From positions 1-59,528 of IMG/VR virus record IMGVR_UViG_3300025151_000039: a stretch of 59,528 nt of DNA; one strand, 5' to 3'. Below, piece after piece: positions 774 through 42,801 of this stretch. This DNA is from a virus (Duplodnaviria; Caudoviricetes). Made by a program: the position numbers and the translations under genes. Within the stretch, counting starts at the first letter, position 1, and each line of letters opens with the position of its first letter. The notes beneath the pieces were generated by a model. It was not told where the DNA came from, made no database searches, and saw only the letters and a list, made by a program, of their open reading frames with translations.

Positions 774-3056
774 ATCTTTTTTAGAATTATTTATTTCCAT
801 TTGAAGTTCTTTCTTTTTAGTGTCTACTTCATTATTCATAACGTTCCGAAGAAGTTTTTGCTTACCTTCTGTCTCAATATATTGTTTATTTAACCCGGAC
901 TTTACTTCTTCTTTCTTTTTATTTATTTCAACTTCTGCTTGCATGACTTTACCTTTAATACCAGCTTGAACAAGCTGTCTTTCAAGGGTTTCAATCGTGC
1001 CGTCCTTATCTTTGACCGCTTCAGAAAGTTGTTGAACTTGCCCCGATAACTGTGCATATAGTGACTTCCTTTGTACAATTTGCTCTTTATTTCTAATATC
1101 AGTTTCAGCTAAAACTGCAACATCATCAATCACTCCTTGCTGCAATAATTCTTTTAATTCAGCCAAGTAAGCCCATCTGTTAACTGGGAGAGTAGATCCT
1201 GATATAATCCTTACGTCAAATTTAGCTGCAGCATAATCTTTCCATTTTCCAATTGCTTCTCCCATATCATTGTAAATAGGAATATTAATTTCAGCTGTTT
1301 TCTCTTCCTGAATAGCATTTGGCTGGACAATTCTAAATACTTTATTAGCTGTATATACAACTTGAGAATATTGCTTAACCACTTCTCCTAGCTGTCTCAG
1401 TGCTGGCTCTATGCAGTTTTTCATCCAGTATTTAATTCTTCTAGTACCATACTCATCCATTGCAAGCATTCCTCTAAAGGTTTCATGTTGCTGCCCAGTA
1501 TCTCCTTGCATTGAAGAATAAATTCCTGCTAGATATTCCATATCTCCTTTACCCTGTTGTACTATTCCGAAAAATGCATTAGGTAATGGCATTGGCTGTA
1601 CTGGTGAAGGAGGTTGATGTCCTGGTCTGTATTTCAACATAGCTCCTGGAGATGATGAGTATTTTTCCCACTCATCTTCCTCTATAGCTCCTTCTTCGTA
1701 CATCCATCTCAAACTAGACCCTAAAGAAGCGTTATGTACTAATAATTGGTGAGCTTTATTTAATTCCTTTTGCTTTCCTATTAAAGGAGCAACTGCTGAC
1801 ATTGGGTAAGGTGTTCCAGTCCATTTGTAATGAAATGGAATTATAGGATAGTCAACTATTTTCTCATCTAATATTTTTTCATACAACAGAATATCTGAAA
1901 CAACACAGGTCTGCTTTATTCTAGTTGTATGATAAGGGATAGCGCTTATGACATTTTTTTGAAAAACTTCATCTTTTATTAAAATATCAAATTCTTTTTT
2001 AGAAATAGTAATGTTTTCAGTTTTAGAAGCTTGCTCTTGCAATTTAGCCATCATCTCTTGCTCAGCAATTTGAATCTGAGTTTGAGCTTCGTCTTGAGCT
2101 TTTCTTATTTCGAGCTCTGCTCTTTCTGGAAGCATTCCCCCGGATTGCACTGCTTGTTGTAAAGAAACCTGTGTTTCTTTTAATTTAACCTCCATCTCAG
2201 CCTGAAGAACAGATATTTGTTTTGAAAGTTGTTGTTTTATTTGAGTTAACTGTTCAGGGGATGGAGGAACTCTATGAAATACTGATACAAAAGGAACTTT
2301 AATTTTTTCAAACAATTCGTAAAGTTCAACCATTGCTTCTGTCTTCATTCCATCTTCCATATCGACAGGATCATCTGTATCATATATAGTAAAATCTTTT
2401 TGATCTGAATCTTTTGGTTTTACAGAGTAATCAAACTCTGAATAATTCATACTAGTGGCTTTGTTTATTTTAGCTTCCATTCCTGGGAATAACTGCTTTA
2501 CATGGGATTTAGGCAGCACTTTTCTAATCATAATATATGAAGCATCTTTAAAAAGTATATCTCTAGATTTAGGGTCTACGAATAGATCGAAAGGATGAGG
2601 TTGAATTATTTTAACCTCCCCTAAACCTCTATCTGCATCTGGATCCACTGTAACCTGTAAATAACCTACAGATTTATTAACAGCATCATTTATACAGTTC
2701 GATAGAAGAGTTTCTCCATGAGAATTGTGCCAAATATAATCAGCTATATCTGAAAACACTGCGGCTACATCTGAATCAGAACCATCTGCGCCTATTGCTT
2801 GCCATCTAGGGTTATTTGCAGTTGCATAGAAGTTTAACATTTCTATAATAGGTATAATTCTATTAATTGTAAATGTAGGCATACCTGCTTCTTGCAAAGC
2901 TGTTTTTTCTGCATTAGTAATTTGATTATCATTGGCAAAATCTTCACCCTTTTGATTTATAGCTTGCCACTGTACTCTCGTGCCATTATTTGCAGTATTG
3001 AATACTTCTCTAATTCTATCTGCTGCTTTTTTTCTCGCCATTATGCTATTACCCAA
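756..3056 (-). CDS. Portal protein (P22/podovirus-like, with long coiled-coil extensions)
   Basis: 766 aa, directly downstream of terL. Segments PTFTINRIIP, FVDPKSRD..F.DA.Y and LIGKQKELNK are typical of P22-like portals. Confidence 0.85.
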   Translation of the reverse strand: MGNSIMARKKAADRIREVFNTANNGTRVQWQAINQKGEDFANDNQITNAEKTALQEAGMPTFTINRIIPIIEMLNFYATANNPRWQAIGADGSDSDVAAVFSDIADYIWHNSHGETLLSNCINDAVNKSVGYLQVTVDPDADRGLGEVKIIQPHPFDLFVDPKSRDILFKDASYIMIRKVLPKSHVKQLFPGMEAKINKATSMNYSEFDYSVKPKDSDQKDFTIYDTDDPVDMEDGMKTEAMVELYELFEKIKVPFVSVFHRVPPSPEQLTQIKQQLSKQISVLQAEMEVKLKETQVSLQQAVQSGGMLPERAELEIRKAQDEAQTQIQIAEQEMMAKLQEQASKTENITISKKEFDILIKDEVFQKNVISAIPYHTTRIKQTCVVSDILLYEKILDEKIVDYPIIPFHYKWTGTPYPMSAVAPLIGKQKELNKAHQLLVHNASLGSSLRWMYEEGAIEEDEWEKYSSSPGAMLKYRPGHQPPSPVQPMPLPNAFFGIVQQGKGDMEYLAGIYSSMQGDTGQQHETFRGMLAMDEYGTRRIKYWMKNCIEPALRQLGEVVKQYSQVVYTANKVFRIVQPNAIQEEKTAEINIPIYNDMGEAIGKWKDYAAAKFDVRIISGSTLPVNRWAYLAELKELLQQGVIDDVAVLAETDIRNKEQIVQRKSLYAQLSGQVQQLSEAVKDKDGTIETLERQLVQAGIKGKVMQAEVEINKKKEEVKSGLNKQYIETEGKQKLLRNVMNNEVDTKKKELQMEINNSKKDLQTKE

Positions 3057-4624
3057 TCCTTTGCTTTACGCTTCTTTTTAGTAAATCCCTCTTTATTCTC
3101 TTCAAGCCCTTTTGGTGGATATGCAAATTTGCACGCATACGCAAGTCCATCAATTGCATCATCATGAGCCATTCTAGGTCCAAATGTTATAATCTCTCTT
3201 TGAAGTGAATAGTGAGTTTTTTTAATATGGATTTGACCCACAGAGAACCTTTGAGCAAGTATCTCTTGAATCCTATCCCTTTTTGACATTCTTGTTCCCG
3301 GTTTCTCTTCTCTCCACCTAAGGCTAAAATCGTTCCGTCTAAGGCTCTCTGCTCTGATTGCTTGGAAGAGAGGTTTTGACATTGTCGTGTCTTCAACCGT
3401 AAATACCCGTGGGTGATAAATCTTGTTGGTTTCATACATGTAATCCACAATTCCCTTCTTGTCAGAGCCAGGTATCCCCAGTACAGGCAAAGAACGCTTA
3501 CGTATATAGTCAAGCACATAAATGTTATTGTCCATATCCACTGCGACAGTAATAATAACGCTGAAATCACTATCTCTCCTTACCGAATCGGTTGCTGGAT
3601 CAACGCCAGAAAAAGTAAGCACTGGCTTAGCAGTACCATTAACAACAACATAGCTAATTCCCGACTCGTTATCATGTCGAAAATCACCTTCCCAGTATTT
3701 GATATGCTCTCTTGTAAAGATTGCGTCATCTTCACTTTGTACCTCCATAAGGTATTCTTGATAGAATTTTTGAGGTTGACCACTATCTGCATAGAACTTT
3801 TTCTTCCTTTCAATTTCTTCTTTAGGGAACCAACTAGGCCAAAGAATATTGCCTTTTTTATCAATAGCTTTTCTAAAAAATACATCCCAGCTAAAATCTT
3901 CATTCTTACTTAAGGCTTGTTCATGACCAACTATAAGATTATTAACAAAAGAGTCAAAATGTACAGGAGTACCATTGACCCTAAGACGGCCATCAGCAGG
4001 CTCCAAAGCAGGAAACACAACAGCAGTGACCAGAGTACTATTCTTATCGCGGGCCTCAGCGGTAATGGTATTATTTTCGTCTTCAAAATCATCCAAGACC
4101 ACAAGGTCGTACCTCTTGTGCAGCTTTGCTCCTCCTCGGATACCTGAGATATTTGATCTTGAGATGAGTTTCGACCCATCAGATGTCTCTATGTCCTGCT
4201 CTGTCCACTTCTTGCCCTTTATATCACCGAAGTAATACTTTATTTTTTCGTTATATTCTAGATGATGTTTAACATAGTCCATATTACCCGTTGCAAGTTT
4301 CTGTGTAGCTGATACCCAGCCATAAAAATAAGGACCTCCCTTCTCTGTAAAGCCCCACTCTTTAGCTTTTGCAGAAAATGCCAAGTCACGTACTATATCT
4401 GCTTTTGTAAATACAGTTTTACCGTGACCACGAGACATAATAATTGCTAACTGTCTTATGGATTTATCGTCTATTTTATCTGCTAATTCATAATGGAATA
4501 CAGGCGTTTCGGATCGCATAAAGTCTTCTGGCAAAAACAGCTTACCAAAAGATATTACATCATTAAATGCTTGTTTAAGGAGTAATTCTTCCTTAGAAAC
4601 GTTGTGAAAGTTTACATTTGCCAT
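3041..4624 (-). CDS. terL: Terminase large subunit
   Basis: Walker A SRGHGKT, Walker B VVLDDFE, coupling motif VNGTP, FYQEY, and nuclease motifs GVDPA and HDDAIDGLAY. Confidence 0.95.
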   Translation of the reverse strand: MANVNFHNVSKEELLLKQAFNDVISFGKLFLPEDFMRSETPVFHYELADKIDDKSIRQLAIIMSRGHGKTVFTKADIVRDLAFSAKAKEWGFTEKGGPYFYGWVSATQKLATGNMDYVKHHLEYNEKIKYYFGDIKGKKWTEQDIETSDGSKLISRSNISGIRGGAKLHKRYDLVVLDDFEDENNTITAEARDKNSTLVTAVVFPALEPADGRLRVNGTPVHFDSFVNNLIVGHEQALSKNEDFSWDVFFRKAIDKKGNILWPSWFPKEEIERKKKFYADSGQPQKFYQEYLMEVQSEDDAIFTREHIKYWEGDFRHDNESGISYVVVNGTAKPVLTFSGVDPATDSVRRDSDFSVIITVAVDMDNNIYVLDYIRKRSLPVLGIPGSDKKGIVDYMYETNKIYHPRVFTVEDTTMSKPLFQAIRAESLRRNDFSLRWREEKPGTRMSKRDRIQEILAQRFSVGQIHIKKTHYSLQREIITFGPRMAHDDAIDGLAYACKFAYPPKGLEENKEGFTKKKRKAKDWVIA

Positions 4625-4649: not shown

Positions 4650-4679
4650 AACTTACAATTTTAAGCTATTTTATGGCAA
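4650..4679 (-). promoter_or_regulatory. Putative promoter TTGCCA-N18-TAAGTT upstream of terL
   Basis: Matches the repeated motif at 744-773 and 6085-6114. Confidence 0.6.
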
Positions 4680-4689
4680 TAAAAGAATT

Positions 4690-5103
4690 TTATCTTTTTA
4701 TATAGAGATCTTCCGGGCTAATCTTTGGAAGAGTTTTTTGATGATAAAGCATTGCTTCTTTATTTTGCTTTAAATAGTTTGGATTATTAGGAAAATGTGT
4801 TGCTCTATAATTTTCAACAGTTTTTTCCATATTTACAGCAGAATCATCATTTCTTTTCATATTATATAATTTTAAGAATAAATCGTGAGCAATCTTAGTA
4901 TGCTTACCATACTGCCCATCAGCGCTTATAACGTTAATATGAGCACCACCATGTTTATTTTGCTCAGTAGCAAACTCTCCTAATAACTCTTGCAGTTTTA
5001 AAACACTTTCAGGGTCGTCAGTATTTAAAGTCCTTGACGCTGATGCTACATCACTCATCAATCTAATTTTGTCTCTAGTCATCATCCATCTACCTTCACT
5101 CAT
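4690..5103 (-). CDS. Protein with putative peptidoglycan-binding (PG_binding_1-like) domain
   Basis: SVLKLQELL...ADGQYGKHTKIA resembles the V..LQ..L...DG.fG..T..A consensus. Confidence 0.5.
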   Translation of the reverse strand: MSEGRWMMTRDKIRLMSDVASASRTLNTDDPESVLKLQELLGEFATEQNKHGGAHINVISADGQYGKHTKIAHDLFLKLYNMKRNDDSAVNMEKTVENYRATHFPNNPNYLKQNKEAMLYHQKTLPKISPEDLYIKR

Positions 5104-5831
5104 TCTTCTAACTCCATAATTTTTTGTACAGCGTCTATACTTTCAGGTTTAAAGCCTTGGAAACCCACCATGGCTACACCAGATTGTTTAGTGCCTTTGT
5201 CTTCAATTTCTAATATATCTACTAGTTTTAAGAAGGCTTTTAAGCGCTCGCCGTCTTGACGTGCTGTTAAAGCTATGTCTCGTATACCTCTTAATACAAA
5301 GTCTTCATTGATACCAAGTTCTTTAAGTACTGGTTTTATCTCTTCTTTCACAGATTTCTTAATCCTTTCTGTCTTAAGTAAAAGCATTGCTTTCTTCTCT
5401 GCATATTTAGGATTATCAGTCTTATATGCATTCATGTAAGCCTTCACTGGATCTACTCCTTGAGCTATATATAAAGAAAATAACTCTTCTCTGCCATTAG
5501 TCTTTTCTCTATCAAATAACTGTTTTGAAGAAGTCTTAGCACCTCCAAAGCTATAAATATTGTGTCGCTTCTCTGTATCCATCTTGTTGGAATCTACCAC
5601 CATAAATGTTCCTGTACAGGTACCTACATATTCTCTTGCATGCCTCTTATGTTTCCTATGCGGTTTCATTTTGTTGCGACGTAAAATCTGTATATAACAG
5701 CCATCATCTGCTATGACCCAGTCTCCTATCTGACCTTCTCTCCAGTTAGCTTTGTAAATAAAGTTATCCGGTAGTTCGTCAGAGCTATCATATACTATGT
5801 GTTCTGTACCCTTGATACTGTATGTTCTCAT
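5100..5831 (-). CDS. terS: Terminase small subunit (with N-terminal extension)
   Basis: Upstream of terL. FSLYIAQGVDPVKAYMNAY...AEKKAMLLLKTERIK is HTH-like, and RLKAFLKLVDIL resembles the TerS oligomerisation helix. Confidence 0.7.
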   Translation of the reverse strand: MRTYSIKGTEHIVYDSSDELPDNFIYKANWREGQIGDWVIADDGCYIQILRRNKMKPHRKHKRHAREYVGTCTGTFMVVDSNKMDTEKRHNIYSFGGAKTSSKQLFDREKTNGREELFSLYIAQGVDPVKAYMNAYKTDNPKYAEKKAMLLLKTERIKKSVKEEIKPVLKELGINEDFVLRGIRDIALTARQDGERLKAFLKLVDILEIEDKGTKQSGVAMVGFQGFKPESIDAVQKIMELEE

Positions 5832-5834
5832 TAA

Positions 5835-6080
5835 TTATGCCTTCCGATTAAACGTAAAAAGCCCATTAGGGTGTCTTCGACGAATTTCACTCTTTTTTGC
5901 TGGAAAGCTTTAGATAATATTAAAAGCGATTCTCTATTTTTTATAGGCTTACGATCCTAGACTTTACTACGATTCAGAGAAGTTTGGTCAGGTAGATTAC
6001 CCCTCTCTGACGCCCTGCGAGCCCTTGGTATTGGCTGGTCAACTATTAACTGACAAGGCTGTTGTGGAGATTTCCAACGC
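5835..6080 (-). ncRNA. Structured ~250-nt 5' leader (or sRNA) upstream of terS
   Basis: No ORF. Stems on the minus strand: TCAGAGAGG/CTTCTCTGA, and CCTTG/CAAGG enclosing the hairpin GTCAGTTAATAGTTGAC. It begins just after the predicted promoter at 6085-6114. Confidence 0.45.
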
Positions 6081-6084
6081 GGAT

Positions 6085-6114
6085 AACTTACATAAATATA
6101 TATTCCAAAAGCAA
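6085..6114 (-). promoter_or_regulatory. Putative promoter TTGCTT-N18-TAAGTT driving the packaging module
   Basis: Third copy of TTGCnn-N18-TAAGTT, located at the strand-switch region. Confidence 0.6.
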
Positions 6115-6164
6115 GGTTTCAAAAATTGCCGGATTTTAATACGTGGTCTTATTTCATTTGTATA

Positions 6165-6179
6165 CCCCCTATAAGGGGG
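6165..6179. promoter_or_regulatory. GC hairpin CCCCCT-ATA-AGGGGG followed by a T-rich tract at the divergent strand switch
   Basis: Perfect 6-bp inverted repeat with a 3-nt loop; T-rich run at about 6192-6230. Function is inferred only. Confidence 0.35.
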
Positions 6180-6256
6180 ATTTCACTAACGTTTTTTCGT
6201 TATTTTTGATTTTGTTTTTTTAGGTTTTTTAGTCTAATTAAATAGGAGATAAATAG

Positions 6257-6565
6257 ATGAGCAAGTTTTACGGTGAGTTGAATGACAATAAAGCTGTGAA
6301 TGTAGATAATATTACGATTAGTCCTGCGCAAGCAAGACATAATATTAATGTAATGCTATTAAGATCACAGAAAGAATTGTCTGTTCAAGATCATATAAGA
6401 TTTACTAATGCTATCAAAGTTGAGCAAGATCCTCAAGATATGAAAGCAATGGAAGCATCATACGCAGCTGATGAGCGTAGAAAAATTGTTAAAGATATGA
6501 TTGCAAAAGGTAAATCTGAAAAAGAGATCAAAAGAGCTCTTAGAATTTATGATAATTGTGTTTAA
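6257..6565 (+). CDS. Hypothetical protein (first gene of the early arm)
   Basis: 102-aa ORF with AGGAG SD. Confidence 0.75.
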   Translation: MSKFYGELNDNKAVNVDNITISPAQARHNINVMLLRSQKELSVQDHIRFTNAIKVEQDPQDMKAMEASYAADERRKIVKDMIAKGKSEKEIKRALRIYDNCV

Positions 6566-6768
6566 AAAGTAAGTCATGACCCTGTAGTGATTAAAAGAGA
6601 GAGTAATCGAAGCTCTCTCTTCACTACTTGTATAGTAGTTTAGTTGATTCGATACTACTTGCACCATAACATGCTAGCTCGTACTTCTTCTCTCTAATGT
6701 ATCTATTATGTATATATGCTCTACATTCTCTAATATATATCTAATAAACACTACAATAAACTAGTGTA

Positions 6769-6829
6769 ACTCGTCACGGCGAGTATAAATAGCCACTTAG
6801 GCCGTGAGCGTTGATAATATCAGGTGTGG
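6769..6829 (+). ncRNA. Pistol self-cleaving ribozyme (predicted cleavage G6824|U6825)
   Basis: P1 ACTCG/CGAGT with loop TCACGG pairing to CCGTGA (pseudoknot), linker ATAAATAG, P2 CCAC/GTGG, TTAGG, GCG, P3 TTGAT/ATCAG, then a GT cleavage dinucleotide. This matches the published pistol consensus element by element. Confidence 0.93.
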
Positions 6830-7327
6830 AGATGCAATTGAACTATTTACTAAGTTAAGAGCGGACATGTCGCCGGGCATGCTTAGCAAAGTAATTAGAT
6901 GTAGATTGTATCAACATTAAATCAAGCTTTCATACCATACTAATATTACCTGTATGGACTCAATTTGAAAGAGGAGGATGTGCTGCCTTGAGAAAGCAGT
7001 GTAGTTAATCATAGCGTAGTGAACTATGTATCATGGTATTCATTAAAAGTATCGTAGCGATAACAAGCTCATACAGAATCGGAATACCACAACTGTTACG
7101 TTGTAAATATGATGTGGACGCGAGCCGAAAGTGCTCCACAGTGAACTCCCTGTTCTAGGGTTCATCGTTAGTGATGATTAAGGCGTGAGAATCGTGCGTC
7201 TAGAACAGTTTTATCAATAACTTGAGTTGTAACCCACAAGGCAGTTAATAGCTGACAGGGCAGTAGCAATAGCTGAGTCGCAATCAGTGAGCGTTTGGAC
7301 TGTCAAAGGGGCTCTACAATTTAAGTT
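6825..7327 (+). ncRNA. Large structured non-coding RNA 1 (~500 nt), family unassigned
   Basis: No ORF. Stems: GATGCAATT/GATTGTATC, CTTTCA/TGAAAG, CCATAC/GTATGG, TGGTATTC(7034)/GAATACCA(7082), CTGTTCTAG(7150)/CTAGAACAG(7200), AACTTGAGTTGTA(7219)/TACAATTTAAGTT(7315), TGACAG/CTGTCA. Confidence 0.65.
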
Positions 7328-7342
7328 CTAAAAGGAGGTGTA

Positions 7343-7534
7343 ATGTTAAAATTAATAACTTATGTTCCATTAGGTCTAATAAGTTTATTAGCAACTATTC
7401 CATTCTTATCTATAGCTTTCGATTACTTCTTTAAAGAAAGTTATTATTTAAGCTTCATGTTTTGCTTAATAGCATCATGGATAATAATAAACTTTATTCA
7501 CTTAATAATAGAGGAGTTTGAAATATGGAAATAA
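7343..7534 (+). CDS. Small membrane protein (2 TM)
   Basis: AAGGAGG SD; two hydrophobic stretches. Confidence 0.7.
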   Translation: MLKLITYVPLGLISLLATIPFLSIAFDYFFKESYYLSFMFCLIASWIIINFIHLIIEEFEIWK

Positions 7535-7641
7535 TGTTGCATGTATTATTATTATTTGGCTCAATTGCATTAGCAATAGGGATATTGTGGTTATTTTTAT
7601 TCTTAGTTATTAAATTATTTATGTTTTTAGAGCGATTATAA
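7525..7641 (+). CDS. Small single-TM peptide (38 aa, MEIMLHVLLLFGSIALAIGILWLFLFLVIKLFMFLERL)
   Basis: GAGGAG SD upstream; hydrophobic; below the ORF-track cutoff. Confidence 0.55.
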   Translation: MEIMLHVLLLFGSIALAIGILWLFLFLVIKLFMFLERL

Positions 7642-7697
7642 TGGGTGAAGAAAAGAGGGGAGTAGTACGAAACTAACGACTCTCCTCTCTTATTTAT

Positions 7698-7771
7698 AGC
7701 GGATGGGTGAAACGGAAAATCATACAAGCCTCATAAGCTTGTGATAGCAGGTTCGACTCCTGTGTCCGCTA
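7698..7771 (+). tRNA. tRNA with CAU anticodon (elongator Met or Ile2)
   Basis: Acceptor AGCGGAT/GTCCGCT+A, D stem GTGA/TCAT, anticodon stem CAAGC/GCTTG with loop CT-CAT-AA, T arm GCAGG-TTCGACT-CCTGT. No encoded CCA; G at position 8. Confidence 0.88.
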
Positions 7772-7798
7772 CTATTTTTAAAATAAAATGGAGGTATA

Positions 7799-7969
7799 AT
7801 GTCAGAACAACTGACCAATAAGAAGTTAGCTCAAGATAAAGGCTGTACTTCACGACAAATCAGCAAAAGTCGTAAAAGAGGCTGGATATGGGTTGAAGAC
7901 ATCGGTAAAGGTATTGGTGCAGTTAAGAAAGTTAATTATACAGCTCCTACAGCTGTGAGGAAGCCATAA
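7799..7969 (+). CDS. Small basic HTH-like protein (56 aa)
   Basis: GGAGG SD; MSEQLTNKKLAQDKGCTSRQISKSRKRGWI has an HTH-like pattern; TAATG coupling to the next gene. Confidence 0.6.
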   Translation: MSEQLTNKKLAQDKGCTSRQISKSRKRGWIWVEDIGKGIGAVKKVNYTAPTAVRKP

Positions 7970-8544: not shown

Positions 8545-8720
8545 ATCTTAATAACGATTGAAAGATACCTCGTTGAGATGTGGTCATGGACCTGATTCGA
8601 CAGTACAGGGAATAAATGATTCAATCCTTATTATTCAAAGTTATTGAGCTCTTCGAGGGAAGTCGACGTCCTGACAAGAGCTTCATAACTCTTTTAAAAA
8701 TTAAATAGGAGGTATAAACG

Positions 8721-8846
8721 TTGGAAAATAACAACGAATCACCAAATTGGTGGCAAGATGAATACGAGCTTCAGCATCAAAAGCATGAGATTTCTTATGG
8801 AAAGTATCAACGAACTTATGAAATTTTAGGCTGGTATAAAATTTAA
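8721..8846 (+). CDS. Small hypothetical protein (41 aa, TTG start)
   Basis: AGGAGG SD 8 nt upstream of TTG; open frame MENNNESPNWWQDEY...GWYKI. Confidence 0.55.
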   Translation: MENNNESPNWWQDEYELQHQKHEISYGKYQRTYEILGWYKI

Positions 8847-9443
8847 CCCGAGTTGAGTGATAGGGTTAAAATTGCTATTAAGTTAGCATTTCTTAGGTTG
8901 GCTAGAACCAGTAGCGGTATCCTTGGACTGGGAGACAACGAGCCAGGTTTAGAGAGTCAACCTATAGATTTAAAATAATTAGTAGAAGTAAGCATTATCC
9001 GGCCAGGTAATGATTATTTTGTAGCATAATCCTGAGAACGATCTGTGGTGAGCAGCGCAGACTCAGGGCACACTTTATAGGTCTACAGGCCTATCTAATA
9101 TTGCTAAATGGTAGTATTAGCCTCGTAAGGGGATTGCGTAATACATGTACGGTAGCAGCAACTTAATATAGAAAAGTTGATCGTGGGAACTCAAAGCTGG
9201 GAGGACAAGGGAGTCCTAAGGTAGCTTAAACTCAATAAACAAAGTGACTTAATAGCGAGCAATTGCTAGTGGTCCTTTGCAGTAATGTATCTGAAGAGAT
9301 ATGAGCTGAGGTCAGTAATGATGAGAGGAGTTCGACGTGTGAAAGCACAACACCAAATATCCCGCTACTTGTTAGGTAACGATTTGAGAGAGTCAAAAGC
9401 TCCTCTATGCCCTATTTGTAAAGAATAGGTGAACTATCGGGTT
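8845..9443 (+). ncRNA. Large structured non-coding RNA 2 (~600 nt), family unassigned
   Basis: No ORF. Closing stem AACCCGA(8845)/TCGGGTT(9437); 14-bp stem TTGCTATTAAGTTA(8872)/TGACTTAATAGCGA(9245); TAGGTTGGCT/AGTCAACCTA; CCTGAG/CTCAGG. Several GNRA-capped hairpins: CCTC-GTAA-GGGG, TGCA-GTAA-TGTA, TCA-GTAA-TGA, GTGT-GAAA-GCAC. Confidence 0.7.
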
Positions 9444-9474
9444 TAAATCTAACTATGTGCTATTTATTTTATTA

Positions 9475-9704
9475 TTAACCGCCAGAGAGCAATGCAATCG
9501 TGTGCGGAAACTTGCTGGCATGCCAAGACAGAAGACTAGGAGCTCAGTCAGTATGTAAGTATGCCAATAATTAACGCCATTCCAATGGTGTTCAGACCAG
9601 GGGAAAGTGAGGTGTTCTAAATGTTACGCTTACCTAGGATGATAATAATTTCTGAGGTATAATCTACCAAAACAGAAGCCTTTCACCCCCTGCTCTGTGG
9701 TTAA
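9475..9704 (+). ncRNA. Structured non-coding RNA 3 (~230 nt)
   Basis: Closing stem TTAACCGCCAGAG/CTCTGTGGTTAA; internal GGCATG/TATGCC, ACGCCATT/AATGGTGT, GGGGAAAG/CTTTCACCCC. Confidence 0.55.
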
Positions 9705-9716
9705 AACAGGAGAACT

Positions 9717-9878
9717 ATGAGAACTGATTTTTATAATATAAGATCAAAATTACCATCTGAGTTTCATGTTAGATGTGAGACTGTAAAGTGTCCTAATTAT
9801 TACAATACTAAGTATAAAAATGCTAATGGCTATTGTAAACCTTGTAATGATAAAAGAAAAGAGAAAGGAAAGGCATAA
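9717..9878 (+). CDS. Small zinc-finger protein (53 aa)
   Basis: AGGAG SD; CETVKC...YCKPC; TAATG coupling to the next ORF. Confidence 0.65.
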   Translation: MRTDFYNIRSKLPSEFHVRCETVKCPNYYNTKYKNANGYCKPCNDKRKEKGKA

Positions 9879-12782: not shown

Positions 12783-13718
12783 ATGGAAAATAATTTCATA
12801 ATATCTCAAAATGATTGGGATACAATTATCGCTTATGCTCAAATGAGCTATGATAAGTGGAAAACTGAGATCGGCGGTATGTGTGTTGCCATTCTCGACA
12901 AAGAAACCAAAACAATGGTTATAAAAGACCCTGTAATAGGCAAGCAGGAAGTGTCTGGTACGCTTTGCACCTTGGATAAAGGATGGCTTGCTGATTATTA
13001 CATGGAAATGGCCATGAAGCATGGTACTGATGTTAGGTTTGTTTGGTGGCATAGTCATCATATGATGGGTGTGCAATGGTCAGGTACTGACACCTCTACA
13101 ATGAAAGAAGGTTCTAGCGGAGATTACTCTATGAGCTTAGTAGTCAATCTAAAGGGTGAACATACTTTCAGAGTTAGTTGGTGGAAACCAATGGCAGGTC
13201 ATATTGATACTAAAGTTAAAATAGCCGGTCCTGAATTTAGTGTAACTAAAGAGATGGAAGACAACTTTAACAATTTAGTGACAAAGGAAACTCGTGCTAT
13301 AGTTAAGACAACTACTTATGGTAACCGGTATAATGGTTATCATGATTGGAGAACTAAGTACAAACAACCTGGAAATTATGGACCTGGTTATGTAGATGCT
13401 GAACTCATGGATAAAACAGAATCTCTTCAAGAGAAATACTGTAACACCATGGAGTCCTTAATGGAAGAAGTATTTACTGATCAATTAAAATGGCCTCAGT
13501 TTATGAAGAGATGGGATAAAATTATAGAAGATGCTGGCGCACATGATATAATTATAGAACCATTTGAAAAGGATGATTATTCAGATATTTTATTAAAGGG
13601 ATTAATTCCAGATGCAACAGACTACTTTGAAAGCCCAGAACCCGGACTCTCTCTTCACAGAGACAGAGGAATCGGTGGATATGGGAATCCGTTACAGAAA
13701 AATCTGTGGGACGTTTGA
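12783..13718 (+). CDS. JAB/JAMM (MPN+) metallo-isopeptidase
   Basis: E29 ... H90-S-H92-x7-S100-xx-D103 (WWHSHHMMGVQWSGTD) is a complete JAMM motif. Confidence 0.92.
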   Translation: MENNFIISQNDWDTIIAYAQMSYDKWKTEIGGMCVAILDKETKTMVIKDPVIGKQEVSGTLCTLDKGWLADYYMEMAMKHGTDVRFVWWHSHHMMGVQWSGTDTSTMKEGSSGDYSMSLVVNLKGEHTFRVSWWKPMAGHIDTKVKIAGPEFSVTKEMEDNFNNLVTKETRAIVKTTTYGNRYNGYHDWRTKYKQPGNYGPGYVDAELMDKTESLQEKYCNTMESLMEEVFTDQLKWPQFMKRWDKIIEDAGAHDIIIEPFEKDDYSDILLKGLIPDATDYFESPEPGLSLHRDRGIGGYGNPLQKNLWDV

Positions 13719-24623: not shown

Positions 24624-27600
24624 TTATTTTGTACAAGATTTAGATATTTTTCTATAAAACTCAGCGCCATCTCTAAGGATTTCTTTCCTTTTCTTAAAGC
24701 CTAATTTACGACTTCTACCCATAAACTCATTCTCAACAATTTGATCATTTTTAAGCTTTTTAGACCTGTTGTTAACTATAATATCACTAACACCCTCTGG
24801 ACCTCTTTGCGAAGCTCTAATGTCTTCAGCATATCTATAGGCATCCGTAGGAGATAGGTATCTTTCACCATTAATAAATTCGTTAATAGCTCTTATCTGA
24901 TGATCAGCTCCAAGGCCAGTCTTAACATCTCTATTTAATGATGCATTTTTAAGTCTATTCATTAGTCGATTTTTAGGATTATAAGAGAAGTCCATATTCA
25001 TTAAAGGAAGTCTATCATAACTATTATTCATATATGCACGACTCTGCATAGAAATAACCTTTCTTAATACATCTCCAAACATCATTGCCGTATCATGGTG
25101 TAGCTTAGTAAAATTGGTTTTATTACTAGCTTCATTCAAGTAGGTCATAACCGCTTTAGAGATCCCTGGGACTTCATAATAAGCGGCATCATAAGCATCG
25201 TAACCATCATGTATCTTATATTGAGCAACAACCTTTCTATTTATCTCAGGAGAAAGCATTCGATATACAAGCGCTTCTACTGCTAAAGGATCTGTAGGGC
25301 TAATACTTAGACCGTGTTTAGTTTGATTTCCACCTGTTAAATATTGATGAACTAAATTCCTTCTAGCAACACTTAACGCCATAGGATCTCCTTTGTGCAC
25401 ATCTGTTAAAGCGCTAAATTCATCTCTAAAAGAATCATAAAGAGGTTTAATTACAGACTCCATCTTGTTTCTATCAAAAACAACGTCTCCGCTTGTTGGC
25501 ATTGTATTAAAGGCTTGGTATTTTGATTTTAATATCCTGTTTTGCTCGGGATGAGTAATTTCAAATCTTCTTCCATTCATTATAGCGATGTCACTTTTTG
25601 CAATAGGAAGCCTATTAGTAGAGCCTTTTCTAATAACCTGCTTGATATTCTTACCCTTACTATCCCATACTACGTAAGTGTTCTTACCAGCATTATACTC
25701 ATTAGCTCCAAAACCCTTATTAAATGTAACTTTATTAATATCTTGCATTTTATCTATTTCAGACCCAAGTACCATCTGTAAGTCAGAGGCAGCTTCATTT
25801 AGTTCATTTAGGGATTTTCTAACACTTTGAAGTTCTGCCTCTCTATCGTACTTAGAATTTGATAAATAGCTTTCTTGCGATTTTAAATATCTTATTTTAT
25901 CATTAAGTTTTGATAGTTCAACAAAAGAGCCTTCTTGTTTGACATATTTATATAAATCTGAAGCTAATGTAGATGAATAATCAGTTTCATTTAATAGCTT
26001 ATTTTCAGCTTGAAGTAGTATTTTAGATATTCCAAACGTATCATTTGCATTTTTTCTGCTATAATTAGAGTTATATATCCTAGCTAATTGATCAGTAGCT
26101 ATGTCAAAAGGATTTCTTGATATTTTAAAATAATCCTGAACCTGCTTAATGCCTGAAGTAAGATCTACAGAAAGATCTGTATCGTCTGTCTTCCCAAGCT
26201 TTGTATTCCAGTTATTCTTAGGATCAAAAGAGTTCTCTAAGTCTAATCTTCCAAAGTAAATATCTTTTAACTTTAAAGCTTTAGATGATACACCATCAGA
26301 AACTTCACCTCTATTATATCTTAAATATTTTGATAACGGAGATATTACTTTAAAATTAATAAAATCTCTAACACTATCTCTATCTCTAATAGAAAGAACT
26401 TTTTGCTCGTTTTTGGTATCAACCATTTCAAATATGCCATTAAAATCTCTACCTGCTTCACTAGACCAAGATCGTCCTTTTCTAGTACCAAAGAATATGT
26501 CACTTATAAACATCTCTATCTGGTCTGCAGATGGCGGTTTTTCATAACTATCAATAAACTCTTTTGTAGCGCCAGATATTTCGCCAACAGCATCTAAATA
26601 AGCATCAACATCTTTCATTCTTAATGTATACTCTTGAGTACCCATCTTAACTCTTCCTAGCTCACCATTCATCCCAATTGCATTTTGGAGATATGTAAAT
26701 ATATTATGAAGCTTAACAAATCTTCCTCTAGTAACCAGCGACTGCTGTTGAACACTTCCCCAGTTCCTTATATCAGCACTGTTCTGAATGTTTGTATCAA
26801 ACCTTTCTAGTAATAAATTTAGATTAGATTGACGAGCTCCATAACCACTTCTAGCCGCTGCCTCAAAAAGCAGGCGAGAAGGCATTGCTCCGTAAGCGCT
26901 TGATTTGTCAAAGTCAAAATCTGCATCTTGTGGAGATATTGCATCTATTATATTCTGACGCCCAATATTACCTACATCAGTATGCTCCTCGACATAATTA
27001 ACCGCTTGATCTTTTAATTCTCTTATAAGTTTTTTGTGAGCATCGCTACCCTCTATATATATGACCTTATCATCACCTCTCCTTTTACCATCTTTGTTGA
27101 TAAACATATCTCGCAATATATAAGAGCCATCTTTTCTGCGTTTAATCTTTTTAGCGAATCTTAATTTACCACCTCTAGCTATTGCCCCTTGCTGCATTGA
27201 CTCTAGCTGTCTTTGAGCTTCTATTGGAATATAACGGTTATTCAGGCCTGGAGACACAATCCAAATATCCAGAGGCTCGCCATCTGCTGATTTTATAGTA
27301 GGATGCTCTCTCATATCTACATGAACATCATATATTTTTTTACCAGAGCTATCACGATACACAGAACCTTTTGTTCTTCCTTTTGGATCAAGAGGGAGTA
27401 CATCTCCTTGAACACCTGCTCCTTTTGTTTTAGAAGGAGGTACTACTTTGTTAATAACAATATCATTTATCTCATTACGAGGCTGTCTATTATTAGCCAT
27501 TCCTATGTTAATCTTGTTTGTAAAACCAAGGTTGTCAATTAAGTTTTGAACTTGATAGTTGGTCAAAGCAACTTCTTCTCCATGCTCTGAAGCTTTGCGA

Positions 27601-30600
27601 ATATCATCTATTTCTTTGGAAATTAAATCGTCTAAAGCTTTATACTCGTCAAGAATATCTTTTCTTACTTTTGCATTATAATCTTTACTGTCTTTGTTCC
27701 CTAATTTTTCCAGATCTTTAGGCTTAGGGTCTCCTTTTTTAGAAGAAGCTAGAGGGTCTCTTAGCGAGCCATTCTCCATTAACTCATATCCGTCTACCAT
27801 TATAGTAAACTTTTTACCCTCTCTACCTTGTCCTAACTCAGGAATAACAATCATATCAGATGAGATTTCAGTATCTTCAAACATCCCTTTAAATTTCTTT
27901 CCAGAAAATATAAAGAATCCACCTGACCCAGGATCAGAACCGTCGTGAATACCAAACCTTGAAAAGTCCATAGACATATGTCTAGAAGAAGGAGAATATG
28001 TACCAAAAAATCTTTGTGAATATTTTTCACTAGTCATTCCATTGATACTTTTATTAGACTCAACCAATCTAATAGGAAGTGATTGCTCTGAAATTTTCCC
28101 ATGTAAATCAGGAGCCATTGGTGCATAATCTGATGAAAATGCTTCACCTGATGCAATCTTGCTTTGACTAAAGAAGTGAGTAAACAGCTTATCTGCAGAC
28201 ATATCACCCATCCAAGAATCCAATATTAAGCCACTAGTTTCCATCACAGCTTCAAGTGGAGAAGAGTTTAAATAATTATCACCTTCTATTCGTTTTAAAT
28301 CTAAAAGTTTTTGAGTTATTCCTGTAAGATTTTCAGGATTAGTATTCATCTGTCTAAGTACAGTTCCGAAAGTATGTAAGGTTTTATCAAGACCTATATG
28401 ATCTCTAACGCCTAAATCGTGAGGAAGATGAACGCCAATATTAGCTCCAAAATTAGCATTATGCTCTCTACTTAAATTGCCTATTGTAGTAGCGTTATAA
28501 GGAACCTCTATTATCATATCTGAGTTAGTAGAGCTATTAATATAATCCCCTATATTTTCTACCATAGTGTTTTTTACATTACCCGGAGTATCAATCATTT
28601 TGGCAAATCCACCGTCTGTTTCACCTGCTTTTCTATGTCTATTGACTTTTGCCCCGGTATTAAATGCTAGAGCATCTGCACCCGCTTCTTTTAACATTAA
28701 GTCTATAATTGGATCGTAGAAAAAAGCTGTTTTATTATAGAACATACTAACAGCACCATCTTGCATTACTTCAGAATATCCAACTTTTGGTTTTATCGCG
28801 CCAATCTTAACACTGCTTATGTTGCCATCACCGTCTAAGTTAAACCACTCTCTTCGTGCACCTATAGTAGATAGGAATAATAAATAATCTTCCTTTGTTA
28901 AATAAGTGGGAGCATCTGTAGCACTTTTAGCAACTTTAGCGTGTCTGTCTTTAACTTGCTTTATTTGCTCTGCTGTTAGATTGTGATCCGCAGCTCTGTC
29001 ATTTAAGAATTTATCTAAAATTCTATTACTATCAAATACAGATCCATCAGACTCATCATTAATAACTAAATACTTTTGCTTTTTCTTTACACCTGCAGCA
29101 TCACCGATTCTATCAAGCTGTGTTGTAATTTCTTTTATCCAAGGATCTGTATTAGTATCAACTTTATTATATACATGCCGTAAAAGACCGTAATAATTAT
29201 CCTCTAATACCTTTCCATTCAAAGAGCCTATTAATTTTCTTCTTTTAACTAGGTTGGCATCTGCTTTTTGAGCTTCTGCTTTTGTATATAAAGGCATTGT
29301 AACTGACTGATATATCATTTGTATTGCATCAGCTAGGTCTGTATTAGACATGTCTTTACTTGTAAACCTAGGGTCAATGTCTTGGCCTAATAAATCCTTT
29401 AATTCTTTTATCTTACCACCTTCAGACAGAGACTCTCTGACGTAATTAACAGCTTTTTCAGTTGGAACTAATAAAGTTACAGACTCATTTAAATAAACTC
29501 TAGTCATCGCTTCTTTTTCTACAACATTCTCAGCTATAGATTTTAGCTCAGCATCAGAAGTACCTTCCAGCATAGCTTGAACCCTGGTTCTTCTAGAGTC
29601 TTTTTGAAGCTCTCCAGACTGCAGCCTAGCATCCATATCTATAGATTCTTGATTACTAGGTAGTATGTCATCTTTCCAAGTTTGAGTGCCATCTTTCAAG
29701 GTTACAGGAGATTTGATTACTTTATCCATTAAATACCAGTCAGATGACCCTATGAGATCAAACATCTTCATAATACCGTGGCCAGCATCAATAACCCTAT
29801 CCTTACTAAACTCTAGATGAGTGCCATGATATGCAAGTTTTTTAACTTCTCTTTTTGTAGATGCATGCATTATCTGTAATACATCTGTTACCAAGTCAGA
29901 AGTAAGAGGTTTTGCATCAGGCATAACTGCGGGACCCATTTCAGGAGAGTATCCTGTAGTAGCTCGCTCTATTAAAATGTCTGCAGTATCGTAGAGAATG
30001 CCTAAAGCACCGGCCTCATCTCCTTGCTTCATATAGCTTTCATAAATATCAGAAGTATTTTTTATAATCGTCTGAACATCTGAAGTAGGCAGGTTGTAGT
30101 TATTAGCAAATTTATCTATCGTTGTTGTAACATCCATTTCATGATGCTTATCTTTCAACTCAGGACGAACTTTGTCTAGCTCTTTCTTAATATTTTCTCT
30201 TAGAAGATGGTAGTTTGTTTCGTTTCCTGCTAAATTATTTTGAATATCTGTTAAGAAATGAGTAGTCAATGCATTATTTTTCCAAGCCTTAGCAAGGGCT
30301 GCATCAAAAGTATCAACACCTTCTTTCGTAGCTTTTTGTATAAACTTATTTATCTGATCAACAAAATCGCTTTTAGTTATTGATGTTAGTTGAGCAATTC
30401 TTTCATAATCTCTCAATATAAATAAATCAGATATATGATTCTTAATATCATCAAGCTCTTTTAATAAAGCTCCAATTTTTTTAACCCCTTCATCCTTTAA
30501 GTTTTGATTTACAAACTCATTGTCTGCTATTAAAGATTTGTTTTCTTTTAAAGAATTTGCAATTTTTCCTCCAAGAGCAGATACATCTTTTATACCTCCC

Positions 30601-33600
30601 AAGGCATATCTTGCTTGAGATCTTCTTAAGAATGCAACCATTTCAGTTCCAACTGCGTCTTTTCCAACTGCATTTTTAATTGTTTTTAAAGTGTTTTCTC
30701 CACCAGAAAACTTAAGCATATTAGATGTCCCTGCAGCGTCTACAGCACTTTCTAGTGTTCTGTAAAACTGCATAAGCTCATTAACAACATCGACATCTTG
30801 GCCATCATTAATCAAGAATCTTTCCAACTCTTTAGATGAAGGCATTTCATATCTTCCATTTCTTTTTGTAGCAAAATAATCTCTAATTGGAGAAGCTGAG
30901 CTACCACTTGAACTGAAATCAGTTATAAGAGAAGATATACCTTGAGAAATTGAGAATCTTGCATCACTATCTAACAATCTTAGGTTATTAATAAACTCAC
31001 TTTGCATATAGTTTTTAACATCACTAAAGCCTTTATCACTAAAAGTGTCAATACCAAGGGTGCCTTCAGCGACTTTTTTAAGCTCATTTATCTTTTCTAA
31101 TGATATTTCTGACACACCTTTATCAGCATTACCTCCTGAAGCAGCATGCAGCTCTTTTACTCTAGTTAAAAAAGTATTAGCTTCTGCTATAGCTTCTGCA
31201 CTAGCATTGGAGTCGCCTATAAGTATTGATGTATTAGAGCCTACTCTGATTTCTTGAAGCTTGTCTCTTAAACGCTGGGAAGCTTCTTTATCTAAAAATG
31301 TCATTTTGTTAAGAGAAATATCTGAAAATATAGAAGCTGCGTTTATTGACTGCTCTAAAGTTCTTCCTTGAACATAAGCAGCCCTCATAGTTCTATCTGA
31401 AAGTATATACTTATCAATATAGTTATGCTCTTGGTTGCCCCATATTTCATACTGCATTGTTTCATTAGCGTTTGTAAACGCTTTTTCAATCATCGCAACT
31501 CGTTCAGGAGTTAGATCTGCAAGCTCTCTTTTGCCTCCAAGCTTAATAGTTCCATCAGCAACACCGTCTCTAACTAAAGTATTTAATACATCGGCAATGA
31601 TAACACCATCTTTAGATTGAAATTTAGCGCCATTGATATTTGTAAAATCCGGTATCGTCATCCTGCCATTTGAATCAAATTCAATAGTTTGACCTGTTAG
31701 CTGTTGATAAACATCTCGAACAAAATTCCCTGTAGCTGCACTATAAGTATCACTTGTCTTTACAATCGCCTCAGCTTCGATCTCTCTTAGAGTCATGTCT
31801 ATATCTTTAGAATCTCTGACAGCAGGTATGCTATTTAGTTCTTTAATTACCTGGCCAGCACCATCTTTAGACATTAGTTTTTGCAAATAATCTTTAGACA
31901 CAACGTGATTGTCGTAATGATTAAATACCTTTAAAGCTTTATTATACTTTCTTTGAGCATCTGCTTGCTGATCTGCAGGTAAAGACCTAACCCAGTCCAT
32001 GCCGGCAAGTTCAAAAGATTGAGAGTCTGGGCCTACATCACCTATCTCTTCCATGTGAGTATACTCTTTGCCTAAAACCTCATCTATGCCTTCATAGCTA
32101 GATGTTTTTAATAACTTAGTCTTTATAATATTTTGACCATTTGACTGCTCTCTAAAGAAGCCAGTTTTTTGTAATGGCTCTAACATTGAAAGTGATTTTT
32201 GCATTTGATCAACAGCTTCTCTGCTAGCTAAAACTCTTTGTTCGTAATCCTTTCCACCTCCTGGTCCTAGAAATCTTTTAGGCCCTTTAGTGCTATGCTC
32301 GAACATCCAAAATCCACCTTCTGTATTATGAGTACTTCTTCCACCTTTAGATAGGACCATGCCCATCATCATGTTGGTTAGTATTTCAGGAGTATCTGAG
32401 CCTAATGCATTCCATACTTTCCAGTCACCACCTGTTGCTTTATAGTAATCAGCAAAAGCAGGTATATTCATGGCGACACCACCTGCAAGCATTCTAGGTG
32501 TACTTCCCCAGACATCTCTCATGAGCTCACTACCAATATTATTTCTTAATCTTTTTCCAAACTCTTTCCTAGTATCAAACATCATTTTACGGAGCTCTTT
32601 TGTTTTAACACCTTTATCAGCAGCATAATCAAGAAGACTTTTCTTTCCTAGCGCTTTCTCAAACAATAAAGATACTTCTCCTTTAGATGCTCCAGGGACT
32701 TTAGATACTTGATCTATAAAGTGTAAAGCATTGCCCATTTCTCCTCTAGTCATATTCTTGATAGGTGTATAAGACTTTCTTACAGCGGACCAATTATTTT
32801 TAATGTCATCCCATAATCCTACTCTACCACCTTTAATTAATCTAGCCGGGCCAGTAATACCAAACATTAAAGCATGGTGTTGTATATTTCGGATTCTCTC
32901 ACCTAGATCACCTTTTAAGGCTATTCTATGCTCTTCGTTTTGAGGAAGATTTAGAAGAGAGTCATCTATTGTGCCTTTCTCTCCATATACACGCTTCATA
33001 GCTTCTTCTGTGCCCATTTTAATTAATTGACCAGCGCTATGATATGTAATACCAAGTGTCGCCTCGGCTAAAGCCGCATCAACAACTGCTTTAAATGTTT
33101 TATTTTTCATACCTAAAGGAAGCGCATCTGCTAATCTTTCAGTGCCCATTCCTATTAATTTATGATAATCTCTAGAATTGTACTTTAAAGCTTTTTGAAC
33201 AATGCCTGATGCTAGTTCTTGAGCGGCTTCTGTAGATATTTTTTCACCACCTTCTTTTAAAATAGCAGCGCTTATATCATCTGTAGCTTTAGTTATAGCT
33301 TGCATGTTATTTTTAAATACACCTCTATTGCCAACTTCAGATAGCATTTCCTGGCCAATTTTAATATATGGTTGTAATCCAGCCTCAAAAGCCTCTTTAG
33401 ACCCAGCTTCTACTCCTTCACCAACTATTTGAAATGCTTTAGGGATATTATTAGTTACTGTTGCTGTGGCATATTTATCTGCAAGCTCAGAGCCCATTCT
33501 CTTTTGCAGGCCTTTAGATATAGGACTAGCTACTTTAGACAATGTGTTTGACCCAGCTCCTAAAAGCTTACCAGCCCAGCCGAATGAAAAAGCCATTCCC

Positions 33601-42716: not shown

Positions 42717-42717
42717 G

Positions 42718-42801
42718 CAGTAAGGGTAGGACTCGAACCTACACAAGCTCTCGCTTATATCCTAAACAGGGATACGTGTCTGCCAATTCCACCACCTTAC
42801 T
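42718..42801 (-). tRNA. Atypical type II (long variable arm) tRNA with GUU (Asn) anticodon
   Basis: Acceptor AGTAAGG/CCTTACT+G73, D arm GTGGAATTGGCAGACAC, anticodon stem TATCC/GGATA with loop CT-GTT-TA, variable hairpin TAAGC-GAGA-GCTTG, T arm GTAGG-TTCGAGT-CCTAC. Confidence 0.85.

Follow-up and report, generated by a model that had tools for sequence, protein, structure and literature searches.

Among bacterial and phage RNAs of unknown function, GOLLD and ROOL rank with the largest, and recent work has shown that both form RNA-only cages. RAGATH-type RNAs are structured RNAs found near self-cleaving ribozymes; for one ribozyme class, pistol, we know of no established biological role. A complete phage record of 59,528 bases from IMG/VR (IMGVR_UViG_3300025151_000039; its whole length is called the window here) was examined at positions 6825-7327, where a sequence-only reading had proposed an unassigned, multi-domain non-coding RNA of about 500 nucleotides (nt). 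A pistol ribozyme was found at the 5' end of this stretch, and the corresponding slot in related phages was found to hold GOLLD. We favour, with moderate confidence and on the basis of context and partial covariation, the reading that 6825-7327 is a large structured phage RNA, processed by pistol, that stands in for GOLLD without being homologous to it. It is placed among the large phage RNAs because relatives hold GOLLD in the same slot and because pistol lies at the 5' end of GOLLD elsewhere.

GOLLD is described as a homo-oligomeric nanocage, a 14-mer, in a cryo-electron microscopy (cryo-EM) study (PMC12286853). The likeness of 6825-7327 to GOLLD is that of a putative large structured phage RNA beside tRNA-Met, in the slot that GOLLD takes in the closest relatives and headed by the ribozyme that heads GOLLD elsewhere. 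It differs from GOLLD in that neither half resembles GOLLD by sequence or by covariance model, in its length (503 nt as against about 690-800 nt) and in the two small open reading frames (ORFs) that stand between the RNA and the tRNA. ROOL, for which a mean length of 581 nt is given (PMC5737381), has in common with it a phage location near tRNAs and a similar size, but there was no match to the ROOL model RF03087, and in 6825-7327 good support is limited to two long hairpin domains. RAGATH-14 (RF03145) is likewise a structured RNA lying very close to a self-cleaving ribozyme in phage DNA; it covers 190 positions as against about 500 nt, and 6825-7327 matched no Rfam family at E<=10. RAGATH-14 itself was seen in locus L127, a contig of an Acholeplasmataceae metagenome-assembled genome, at 3622-3815 (- strand, 179.7 bits), 417 nt upstream of a pistol at 3132-3205 (- strand). 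As for pistol (RF02679), the full ribozyme is made up of 61 nt at the upstream end, and 6825-7327 itself would be a cleavage product and not a ribozyme.

Ribozyme, fold and variant of 6825-7327

The covariance-model alignment of the ribozyme (Table 1) contains P1, P2 and P3, and inspection of the sequence showed a 6-base-pair (bp) pseudoknot, CACGGC/GCCGUG, that joins the loop of P1 to the junction of P2 and P3; both of its sides deviate from the consensus and the pairing is retained. The ribozyme overlaps the first 5 bases of 6825-7327. Pistol cleavage was located within a 2-nt GU junction between P3 and P2 (Harris 2015, PMC4604425), and G6824-U6825 aligns to the P3-P2 junction of the model (marked ',,'). 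Because the GU junction here is G6824|U6825, this is the predicted cut and 6825 the predicted 5' end of the RNA: the first base of the stretch would be the first base of the 3' cleavage product, which is predicted to keep five ribozyme bases, UGUGG. Both the ribozyme and the option of a leader to the downstream ORF had been missing from the sequence-only reading.

Positions 6825-7327 are non-coding. There was no ORF of at least 60 amino acids (aa) on either strand within 6668-7342, and the longest ORF overlapping 6825-7327 had 44 aa. The genome is densely coding, and the sole longer ORF-free stretch is 8545-9877. Six-frame pieces of 6566-7342 compared with about 115 loci gave no match except via the conserved pistol nucleotides.

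Known RNA families were searched with Rfam 15 over 1.5 kb (6400-7900) with lax filters at E<=10. Only the pistol and the tRNA were found, the other six rows being at chance level; no known family was placed across 6825-7327, and the description 'unassigned' stands. GOLLD (RF02032) and ROOL (RF03087) were absent at E<=10 from 6400-7900 and from the whole phage, where the ROOL search was a weak one, its control having given no signal anywhere. A hidden Markov model (HMM) built from six marine-phage GOLLD 3' domains found nothing in the window at E<=10. A second HMM, built from nine GOLLD 5' domains, found 17 loci at E 9.9e-9 to 4.6e-74 (all but one at <=4e-22) and again nothing in the window at E<=10.

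Homologues of the RNA were equally scarce. Blastn in 'distant' mode with 6560-7345 found none in 50,697 phage records, and blastn and nhmmer with the RNA against 80 terminase-relative, 29 pistol and later loci matched only pistol and tRNA. No homologue was found by exact scans of viral contigs with 6956-6974 and 7122-7139, of metagenome contigs with 6958-6977, or of genome contigs with a helix-A pattern; the exact viral-contig scan with 7259-7276 gave two matches, both attributed to chance by nhmmer. Viral-contig searches by flank proteins (the 102-aa ORF, an ATPase and an alignment of the downstream gene ORF63) yielded no relatives. Single-sequence covariance models of the 5' and 3' domains, run on 99 sources (882,633 bases), recovered the window itself only.

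Whole-stretch z scores for folding were obtained with 100 shuffles, and with 30 shuffles in an independent repeat. On the + strand 6825-7327 had a z score of -2.64 (1 of 100 shuffles as good) versus -1.01 on the - strand (20 of 100); the repeat gave -2.89 and -0.92, respectively. The 5' domain (6825-6917) scored -4.16 on the + strand versus -0.70 on the - strand, and the 3' domain (7219-7327) -3.50 versus +0.05, with none of 200 shuffles folding equally well. The fold exceeds chance, but unevenly, and the statistical support is for the two end domains only. The helices that the sequence-only reading had picked out, including a 13-bp terminal stem, were present in the minimum-free-energy fold of the + strand. 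The overlapping alternative or pseudoknot pairing that it had suggested near 7143-7165 fared less well. A 6-bp hairpin of GAACUC (7143-7148) with GGGUUC (7159-7164) is possible by sequence and overlaps a predicted 10-bp stem; because most pairs of that stem have probabilities of 0.8-0.9 or more (the innermost two are lower), the alternative would be minor and disfavoured in the ensemble, a possibility only.

Seven public sequencing runs, one of them the probable source, had words in common with 6600-7700, and going by the labels of the runs the phage is marine. Two RNA-library runs of one sample, X5 and X6, gave contigs of 199 and 197 nt that aligned to 6862-7022, with 38 and 36 unaligned letters, respectively, before 6862. 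Variant word depths in the two runs were 15.3 and 3.3; the contigs show neither strand, ends nor level. In the aligned piece the itemised changes were three substitutions (6891 G>T, 6893 A>G and 6912 C>T), one additional G following 6884 and the loss of 6894, and no itemised difference fell between 6913 and about 6992. Thirty letters of the loose end were aligned by eye to 6831-6860, with changes at 6831, 6834, 6847, 6848, 6850, 6854 and 6856 and with 6861 lost.

All of the 12 itemised helix changes retain pairing, and all 20 pairs of three 5'-domain helices can still form in the variant. An A-U pair takes the place of G-C at 6831:6912 and of G-U at 6834:6909. Shifted by one register, helix 6847-51 forms again in full with 6893-6889 (C-G, A-U, A-U, U-A, U-A), and helix 6854-59 re-forms as U-G, U-A, C-G (with the inserted G), A-U, A-U and G-C. 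Since the inserted and the deleted base compensate for one another, the 2x2 and 1x1 internal loops survive in the variant, and the G-U pairs of both versions fit the + strand only. When the loose letters are counted back, the ends of the contigs fall at about 6823 and 6825, at most 2 nt from the predicted cut, which is a weak hint of an RNA 5' end. At their other end the contigs of both runs stop at 7022, which suggests a break in the assembly. Homologue collection and covariation, which the sequence-only reading had named as a check, could be carried part of the way: one partial variant, which ends at 7022, keeps three helices of the 5' domain. DNA runs X2 and X3 cover the flanks (6500-6641 and 7378-7641) and the tRNA and do not cover the RNA, a hole that proves nothing.

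The GOLLD slot and the placement of pistol in other phages

Uncultured relatives of the phage are abundant, a terminase relative being encoded in 598 of 599 pattern-matched stretches; among cultured phages the best terminase match had less than 26% identity. In the nearest relative, L002, whose terminase is 96% identical, 5386-4269 aligns with window 5100-6225 and 2114-2016 with the tRNA region (window 7694-7787). Between these two anchors lies GOLLD (183 bits), 8 nt from a tRNA to which the tRNA-Met of the window is 93% identical. GOLLD with a tRNA was also found in this slot in L007 and L008. Of the 48 terminase-relative loci extending at least 2.5 kb upstream, 9 carry GOLLD or its 5' domain. 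The tRNA-Met directly follows GOLLD in L002 and directly precedes it, with gaps of 3-5 nt, in L057, L052 and L019; the marine GOLLD of the cryo-EM study is placed downstream of Met-tRNA (PMC12286853).

Other relatives carry other material in the slot. In L005 it holds a relative of the second non-coding region of the window. L115, the only locus closely sharing both flanks, has an ORF, about 360 ORF-free bases, a twister-P1-like ribozyme and another ORF. This ribozyme (1252-1303, + strand; 53.7 bits, E 1.5e-10, below the gathering score of 67.2) lies 28 nt before the first ORF of an operon syntenic with ORF63-ORF38-tRNA-Met. Related phages differ in the class of ribozyme at the head of this operon. 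Because the content of the slot differs in L002, L005 and L115, the pistol and the RNA are a module swapped into a variable site.

The second non-coding region is the ORF-free stretch of 1333 nt at 8545-9877, with a core at about 8961-9464 (+ strand). The core has a homologue at L005 3204-3664 (- strand; nhmmer E 8.9e-28), and RNAalifold on the window/L005 pair gave 113 pairs, of which 35 differ on both sides and still pair. It had no Rfam match at E<=5 and is probably another unassigned large phage RNA. No paralogy was found between 6825-7327 and 8545-9716.

A pistol-core scan of viral contigs yielded 29 records, four of them with GOLLD. In all four, pistol lay upstream of GOLLD on the same strand, as placed by covariance model, and the gaps from pistol to the Rfam GOLLD 3' domain were 300, 308, 790 and 1469 nt. 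Since the GOLLD 5' domain, about 320-340 nt long, fills the gaps of 300 and 308 nt, pistol abuts the GOLLD 5' domain in two of the four records. It heads small ORFs preceding GOLLD in the other two; the order in L097 is pistol-ORF-GOLLD, the large RNA being embedded in a polycistronic unit. By rough estimate, four such placements in records of 14-92 kb would be expected by chance with a probability below 1e-5. No paper was found linking pistol to GOLLD or to the head of a large non-coding RNA in the literature covered, outside which lay the supplements of Weinberg 2015/2017, which list pistol and GOLLD contexts and could record the adjacency. The presence of pistol at the 5' end of the RNA here and twice at the 5' end of GOLLD, with tRNA-Met in that place in other relatives, suggests that pistol serves to mature the ends of large phage RNAs, leaving a 5'-hydroxyl. 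Among 22 bacterial loci matching the pistol pattern, nhmmer found neither the window RNA nor a marine-type GOLLD, and 20 of these loci searched against Rfam were free of GOLLD and ROOL.

The pistol records had further features. Tandem pistols, two or three at spacings of 500-750 nt, were seen in L094 (about 677-1931), L085 (about 1217-2030) and L083 (about 536-1137); in L094 and L085 an ORF follows each of them after about 40-120 nt, which looks like ribozyme punctuation of a polycistronic transcript. Downstream of three other pistols, 500-1200 nt contain hardly any ORFs or none: L106 at about 12878-13377 (- strand; sense fold z -4.4), L109 at about 1217-2216 (- strand; z -4.7) and L084 at 4673-5672 (+ strand; -151 kcal/mol sense versus -91 kcal/mol antisense). 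These regions matched no Rfam family at gathering score and may be further ribozyme-headed long RNAs.

Processed RNA or another origin

On the reading that we favour, transcription would run rightward from a promoter between about 6660 and 6768. The pistol, as its family membership implies, would cut itself between G6824 and U6825, so that a triphosphate-bearing leader would be lost and the RNA would begin with a 5'-hydroxyl. The retained GUG is predicted to pair with CAU at 6915-6917 and to close the 5' domain; the mature RNA would consist of the conserved 5' hairpin domain, a less defined centre and the 3' domain with its 13-bp closing stem. It would replace GOLLD by position and would be matured by punctuation, with a ribozyme upstream and a tRNA or hairpin downstream. 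Candidate roles are those proposed for GOLLD and ROOL, and we speculate that it could act as a self-assembling scaffold or cage late in infection. If a non-homologous RNA does occupy the GOLLD slot, the function of the slot would be met by different folds, giving a comparative handle on that function.

Several observations weigh against this reading. The central segments fold no better than shuffles on the + strand (6973-7112, z -0.99 versus -2.49 on the - strand; 7113-7208, -1.55 versus -1.37). There is one partial relative in total, and its covariation bears on the 5' domain and not on the centre or the 3' domain; the pairs of the variant were read by hand and its loose end was aligned by eye, and of six other letters counted in the aligned piece three are not itemised and might break pairs. 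The RNA-library contigs prove neither transcription nor RNA ends. The RNA is missing from the closest relatives of the region, L115 and L002, and is hence rare. The usual partner of pistol is an ORF and not a large RNA, an ORF of at least 40 aa beginning within 130 nt downstream at 23 of 33 pistol sites. In a consensus scan promoter-like sites occurred about as often as expected by chance, and no promoter or terminator of the pistol-RNA unit was convincing. The RNA has no defined 3' end; the interval from 7327 to the start of ORF63 at 7343 contains no terminator and no ribozyme, so that by default the RNA stays attached to an mRNA. The earlier proposal of a large RNA of the GOLLD/ROOL kind near tRNAs is borne out to the extent that GOLLD occupies the same slot in relatives, that a tRNA-Met lies 370 nt downstream and that compensating changes occur; its support extends to the end domains only, with the covariation drawn from one partial variant.

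A bolder extension, which we regard as rather doubtful, would make 6825-7327 a third class of large self-assembling phage RNA, unrelated to the others and exchangeable for GOLLD, and about 8961-9464 a fourth. The cassettes would be swapped at one slot, and ribozymes (pistol and twister) and tRNA-Met would serve as interchangeable punctuation trimming them from polycistronic transcripts. If this were so, it would be the first defined biological job for pistol ribozymes.

The main alternative, possible though tentative, is that 6825-7327 is a long structured 5' leader of the ORF63-ORF38 mRNA. A 5'-hydroxyl protects RNA from 5'-end-dependent decay, and the 5'-hydroxyl together with the 5' hairpin would protect the message in this manner, while the 3' stem or pairing with 6926-6931 would tune translation. 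The RNA ends 16 nt before the start of ORF63, a conserved gene, with no terminator between them, and the 13-bp closing stem of the 3' domain ends 6 nt before the ribosome-binding site. When the fold is extended, GGAGGU at 7334-7339 pairs with 6926-6931 at a probability of about 0.6. The frequent occurrence of ORFs shortly after pistol also fits a leader, as does L115, in which the conserved feature would be the ribozyme at the operon head and not the RNA. Against this, 500 nt far exceeds the leaders of 25-130 nt that follow other pistols and the L115 twister, the compensating changes keep a hairpin that is 430 nt from the ribosome-binding site, and the slot in relatives holds a bona fide non-coding RNA, GOLLD. 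The RNA-library contigs cover about 6823-7022 and none of the ORFs, a weak point as holes prove nothing. A leader and a stand-alone RNA overlap as readings, because large RNAs sit in polycistronic units, as in the pistol-ORF-GOLLD order of L097. If 6825-7327 is a leader, it is an unusually long ribozyme-processed one and a case of ribozyme cleavage shaping phage mRNA stability.

It is unlikely that the stretch is a non-functional spacer brought in by module-swapping recombination, or a decayed gene, with structure due to chance and base composition. The lack of a homologue in any collection searched and the unremarkable folding of the centre are in keeping with a spacer, and the site is a recombination hot spot whose content differs among L002, L005, L115 and the window. 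A spacer does not readily account for 12 itemised variant differences that all fall in helices with pairing kept and the insertion and deletion offsetting, nor for end domains whose z scores reach -3.5 or below on a single strand. Junk of 500 nt is seldom retained in phage genomes, and the only longer ORF-free stretch in this one shows conserved structure. No protein-level remnant was found; a decayed gene was considered for 6825-7327 and dropped, translated similarity being absent.

That the stretch is a GOLLD or ROOL homologue diverged past detection by the models is very unlikely. It would explain the same slot, the same tRNA-Met neighbour and the same arrangement of an upstream pistol as for GOLLD elsewhere, and the 5' half of GOLLD is described as poorly conserved (Kretsch 2025, PMC12286853). 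The GOLLD and ROOL models nevertheless gave nothing in either the 1.5-kb or the whole-phage search, and the 3' and 5' HMMs, which detect GOLLDs of terminase relatives at E<=1e-8 (nearly all at <=1e-22), do not detect the window. The conserved blocks of the GOLLD 3' domain are all absent, and 503 nt falls short of the GOLLD length. Least probable is a DNA-level element, a packaging site or replication origin, as might be expected of a region rich in inverted repeats at a distance of 1 kb from the genes for the small and large terminase, which are transcribed divergently, given that its stability is strongly strand-specific and dependent on G-U pairs (A-C mismatches on the other strand), that a ribozyme lies directly upstream on the same strand and that a variant was recovered from RNA libraries.

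Flanking features and other regions of the phage

The features of the region, and the pistol-GOLLD pairs of other records, are collected in Table 1. Genes to the left of the RNA lie on the - strand, and a block of + strand genes lies to its right.

Table 1. Features in and around 6825-7327, with pistol-GOLLD pairs of other records. Coordinates are those of the window unless a locus is named; helices and hairpins are predicted.
Feature	Position	Strand	Remarks
Portal	left of 6825-7327	-	
Large terminase	3041-4624	-	left of the RNA stretch
Small terminase	5100-5831	-	left of the RNA stretch
Two hairpins	6584-6663	+	after the stop of the 102-aa ORF (6257-6565); 6566-6700 fold z -2.51
Pistol self-cleaving ribozyme	6769-6829	+	Rfam RF02679; 57.8 bits, gathering score 34.5; model 1-68 of 68
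5' hairpin domain	6825-6917	+	five stacked helices plus tip; pair probabilities mostly >=0.9
5' domain helices	6826-28:6915-17, 6831-39:6904-12, 6843-45:6896-98, 6847-51:6890-94, 6854-59:6882-87; tip 6866-71:6876-81	+	predicted
Central part	6918-7218	+	hairpin 6935-40:6952-57; predicted hairpins 7014-7029, 7035-7088, 7089-7104, 7113-7140
10-bp stem	7150-59:7199-7208	+	encloses two small hairpins; minimum-free-energy fold
3' hairpin domain	7219-7327	+	closed by 13-bp stem 7219-31:7315-27 (two G-U pairs)
ORF63	7343-7534	+	small hydrophobic protein; GGAGG 5 nt before ATG, a strong ribosome-binding site
ORF38	7525-7641	+	small hydrophobic ORF overlapping the end of ORF63
GC-rich hairpin, then U-rich run	7653-7696	+	7640-7700 fold z -3.27
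tRNA-Met (CAT)	7698-7772	+	ARAGORN; Rfam 46.4 bits; 370 nt downstream of the RNA
Pistol / GOLLD, L111 (G020)	2550-2616 / 1867-2241		
Pistol / GOLLD, L112 (G001)	5514-5580 / 5881-6263		
Pistol / GOLLD, L097 and L104			remaining records with pistol upstream of GOLLD

The two hairpins upstream of the pistol may mark the end of an upstream transcript; the consensus scan gave no terminator at this place. ORF63 is a real, conserved gene. It has two relatives, with 79% and 73% identity, which are 81-82 aa long and carry an N-terminal extension, and a search of metagenome contigs with ORF63 found one locus, L115 (JGI), that encodes a relative and lacks the RNA. Window 7394-7684 is 84% identical to L115 1633-1922, and 7423-7641 is covered by DNA contigs of two other runs with 1-2 differences. 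The hairpin just before the tRNA could be a terminator or a processing site; the terminator scan did not report it, its loop being longer than 8 nt.

Elsewhere in the window, ARAGORN placed a tRNA-Asn (GTT) of 85 nt at 42717-42801 (- strand; Rfam tRNA 49.2 bits), longer than is usual for its class. A single ORF of 3120 aa occupies 24624-33986 on the - strand, and it is flanked by long ORFs of 931, 838 and 1281 aa on the same strand.

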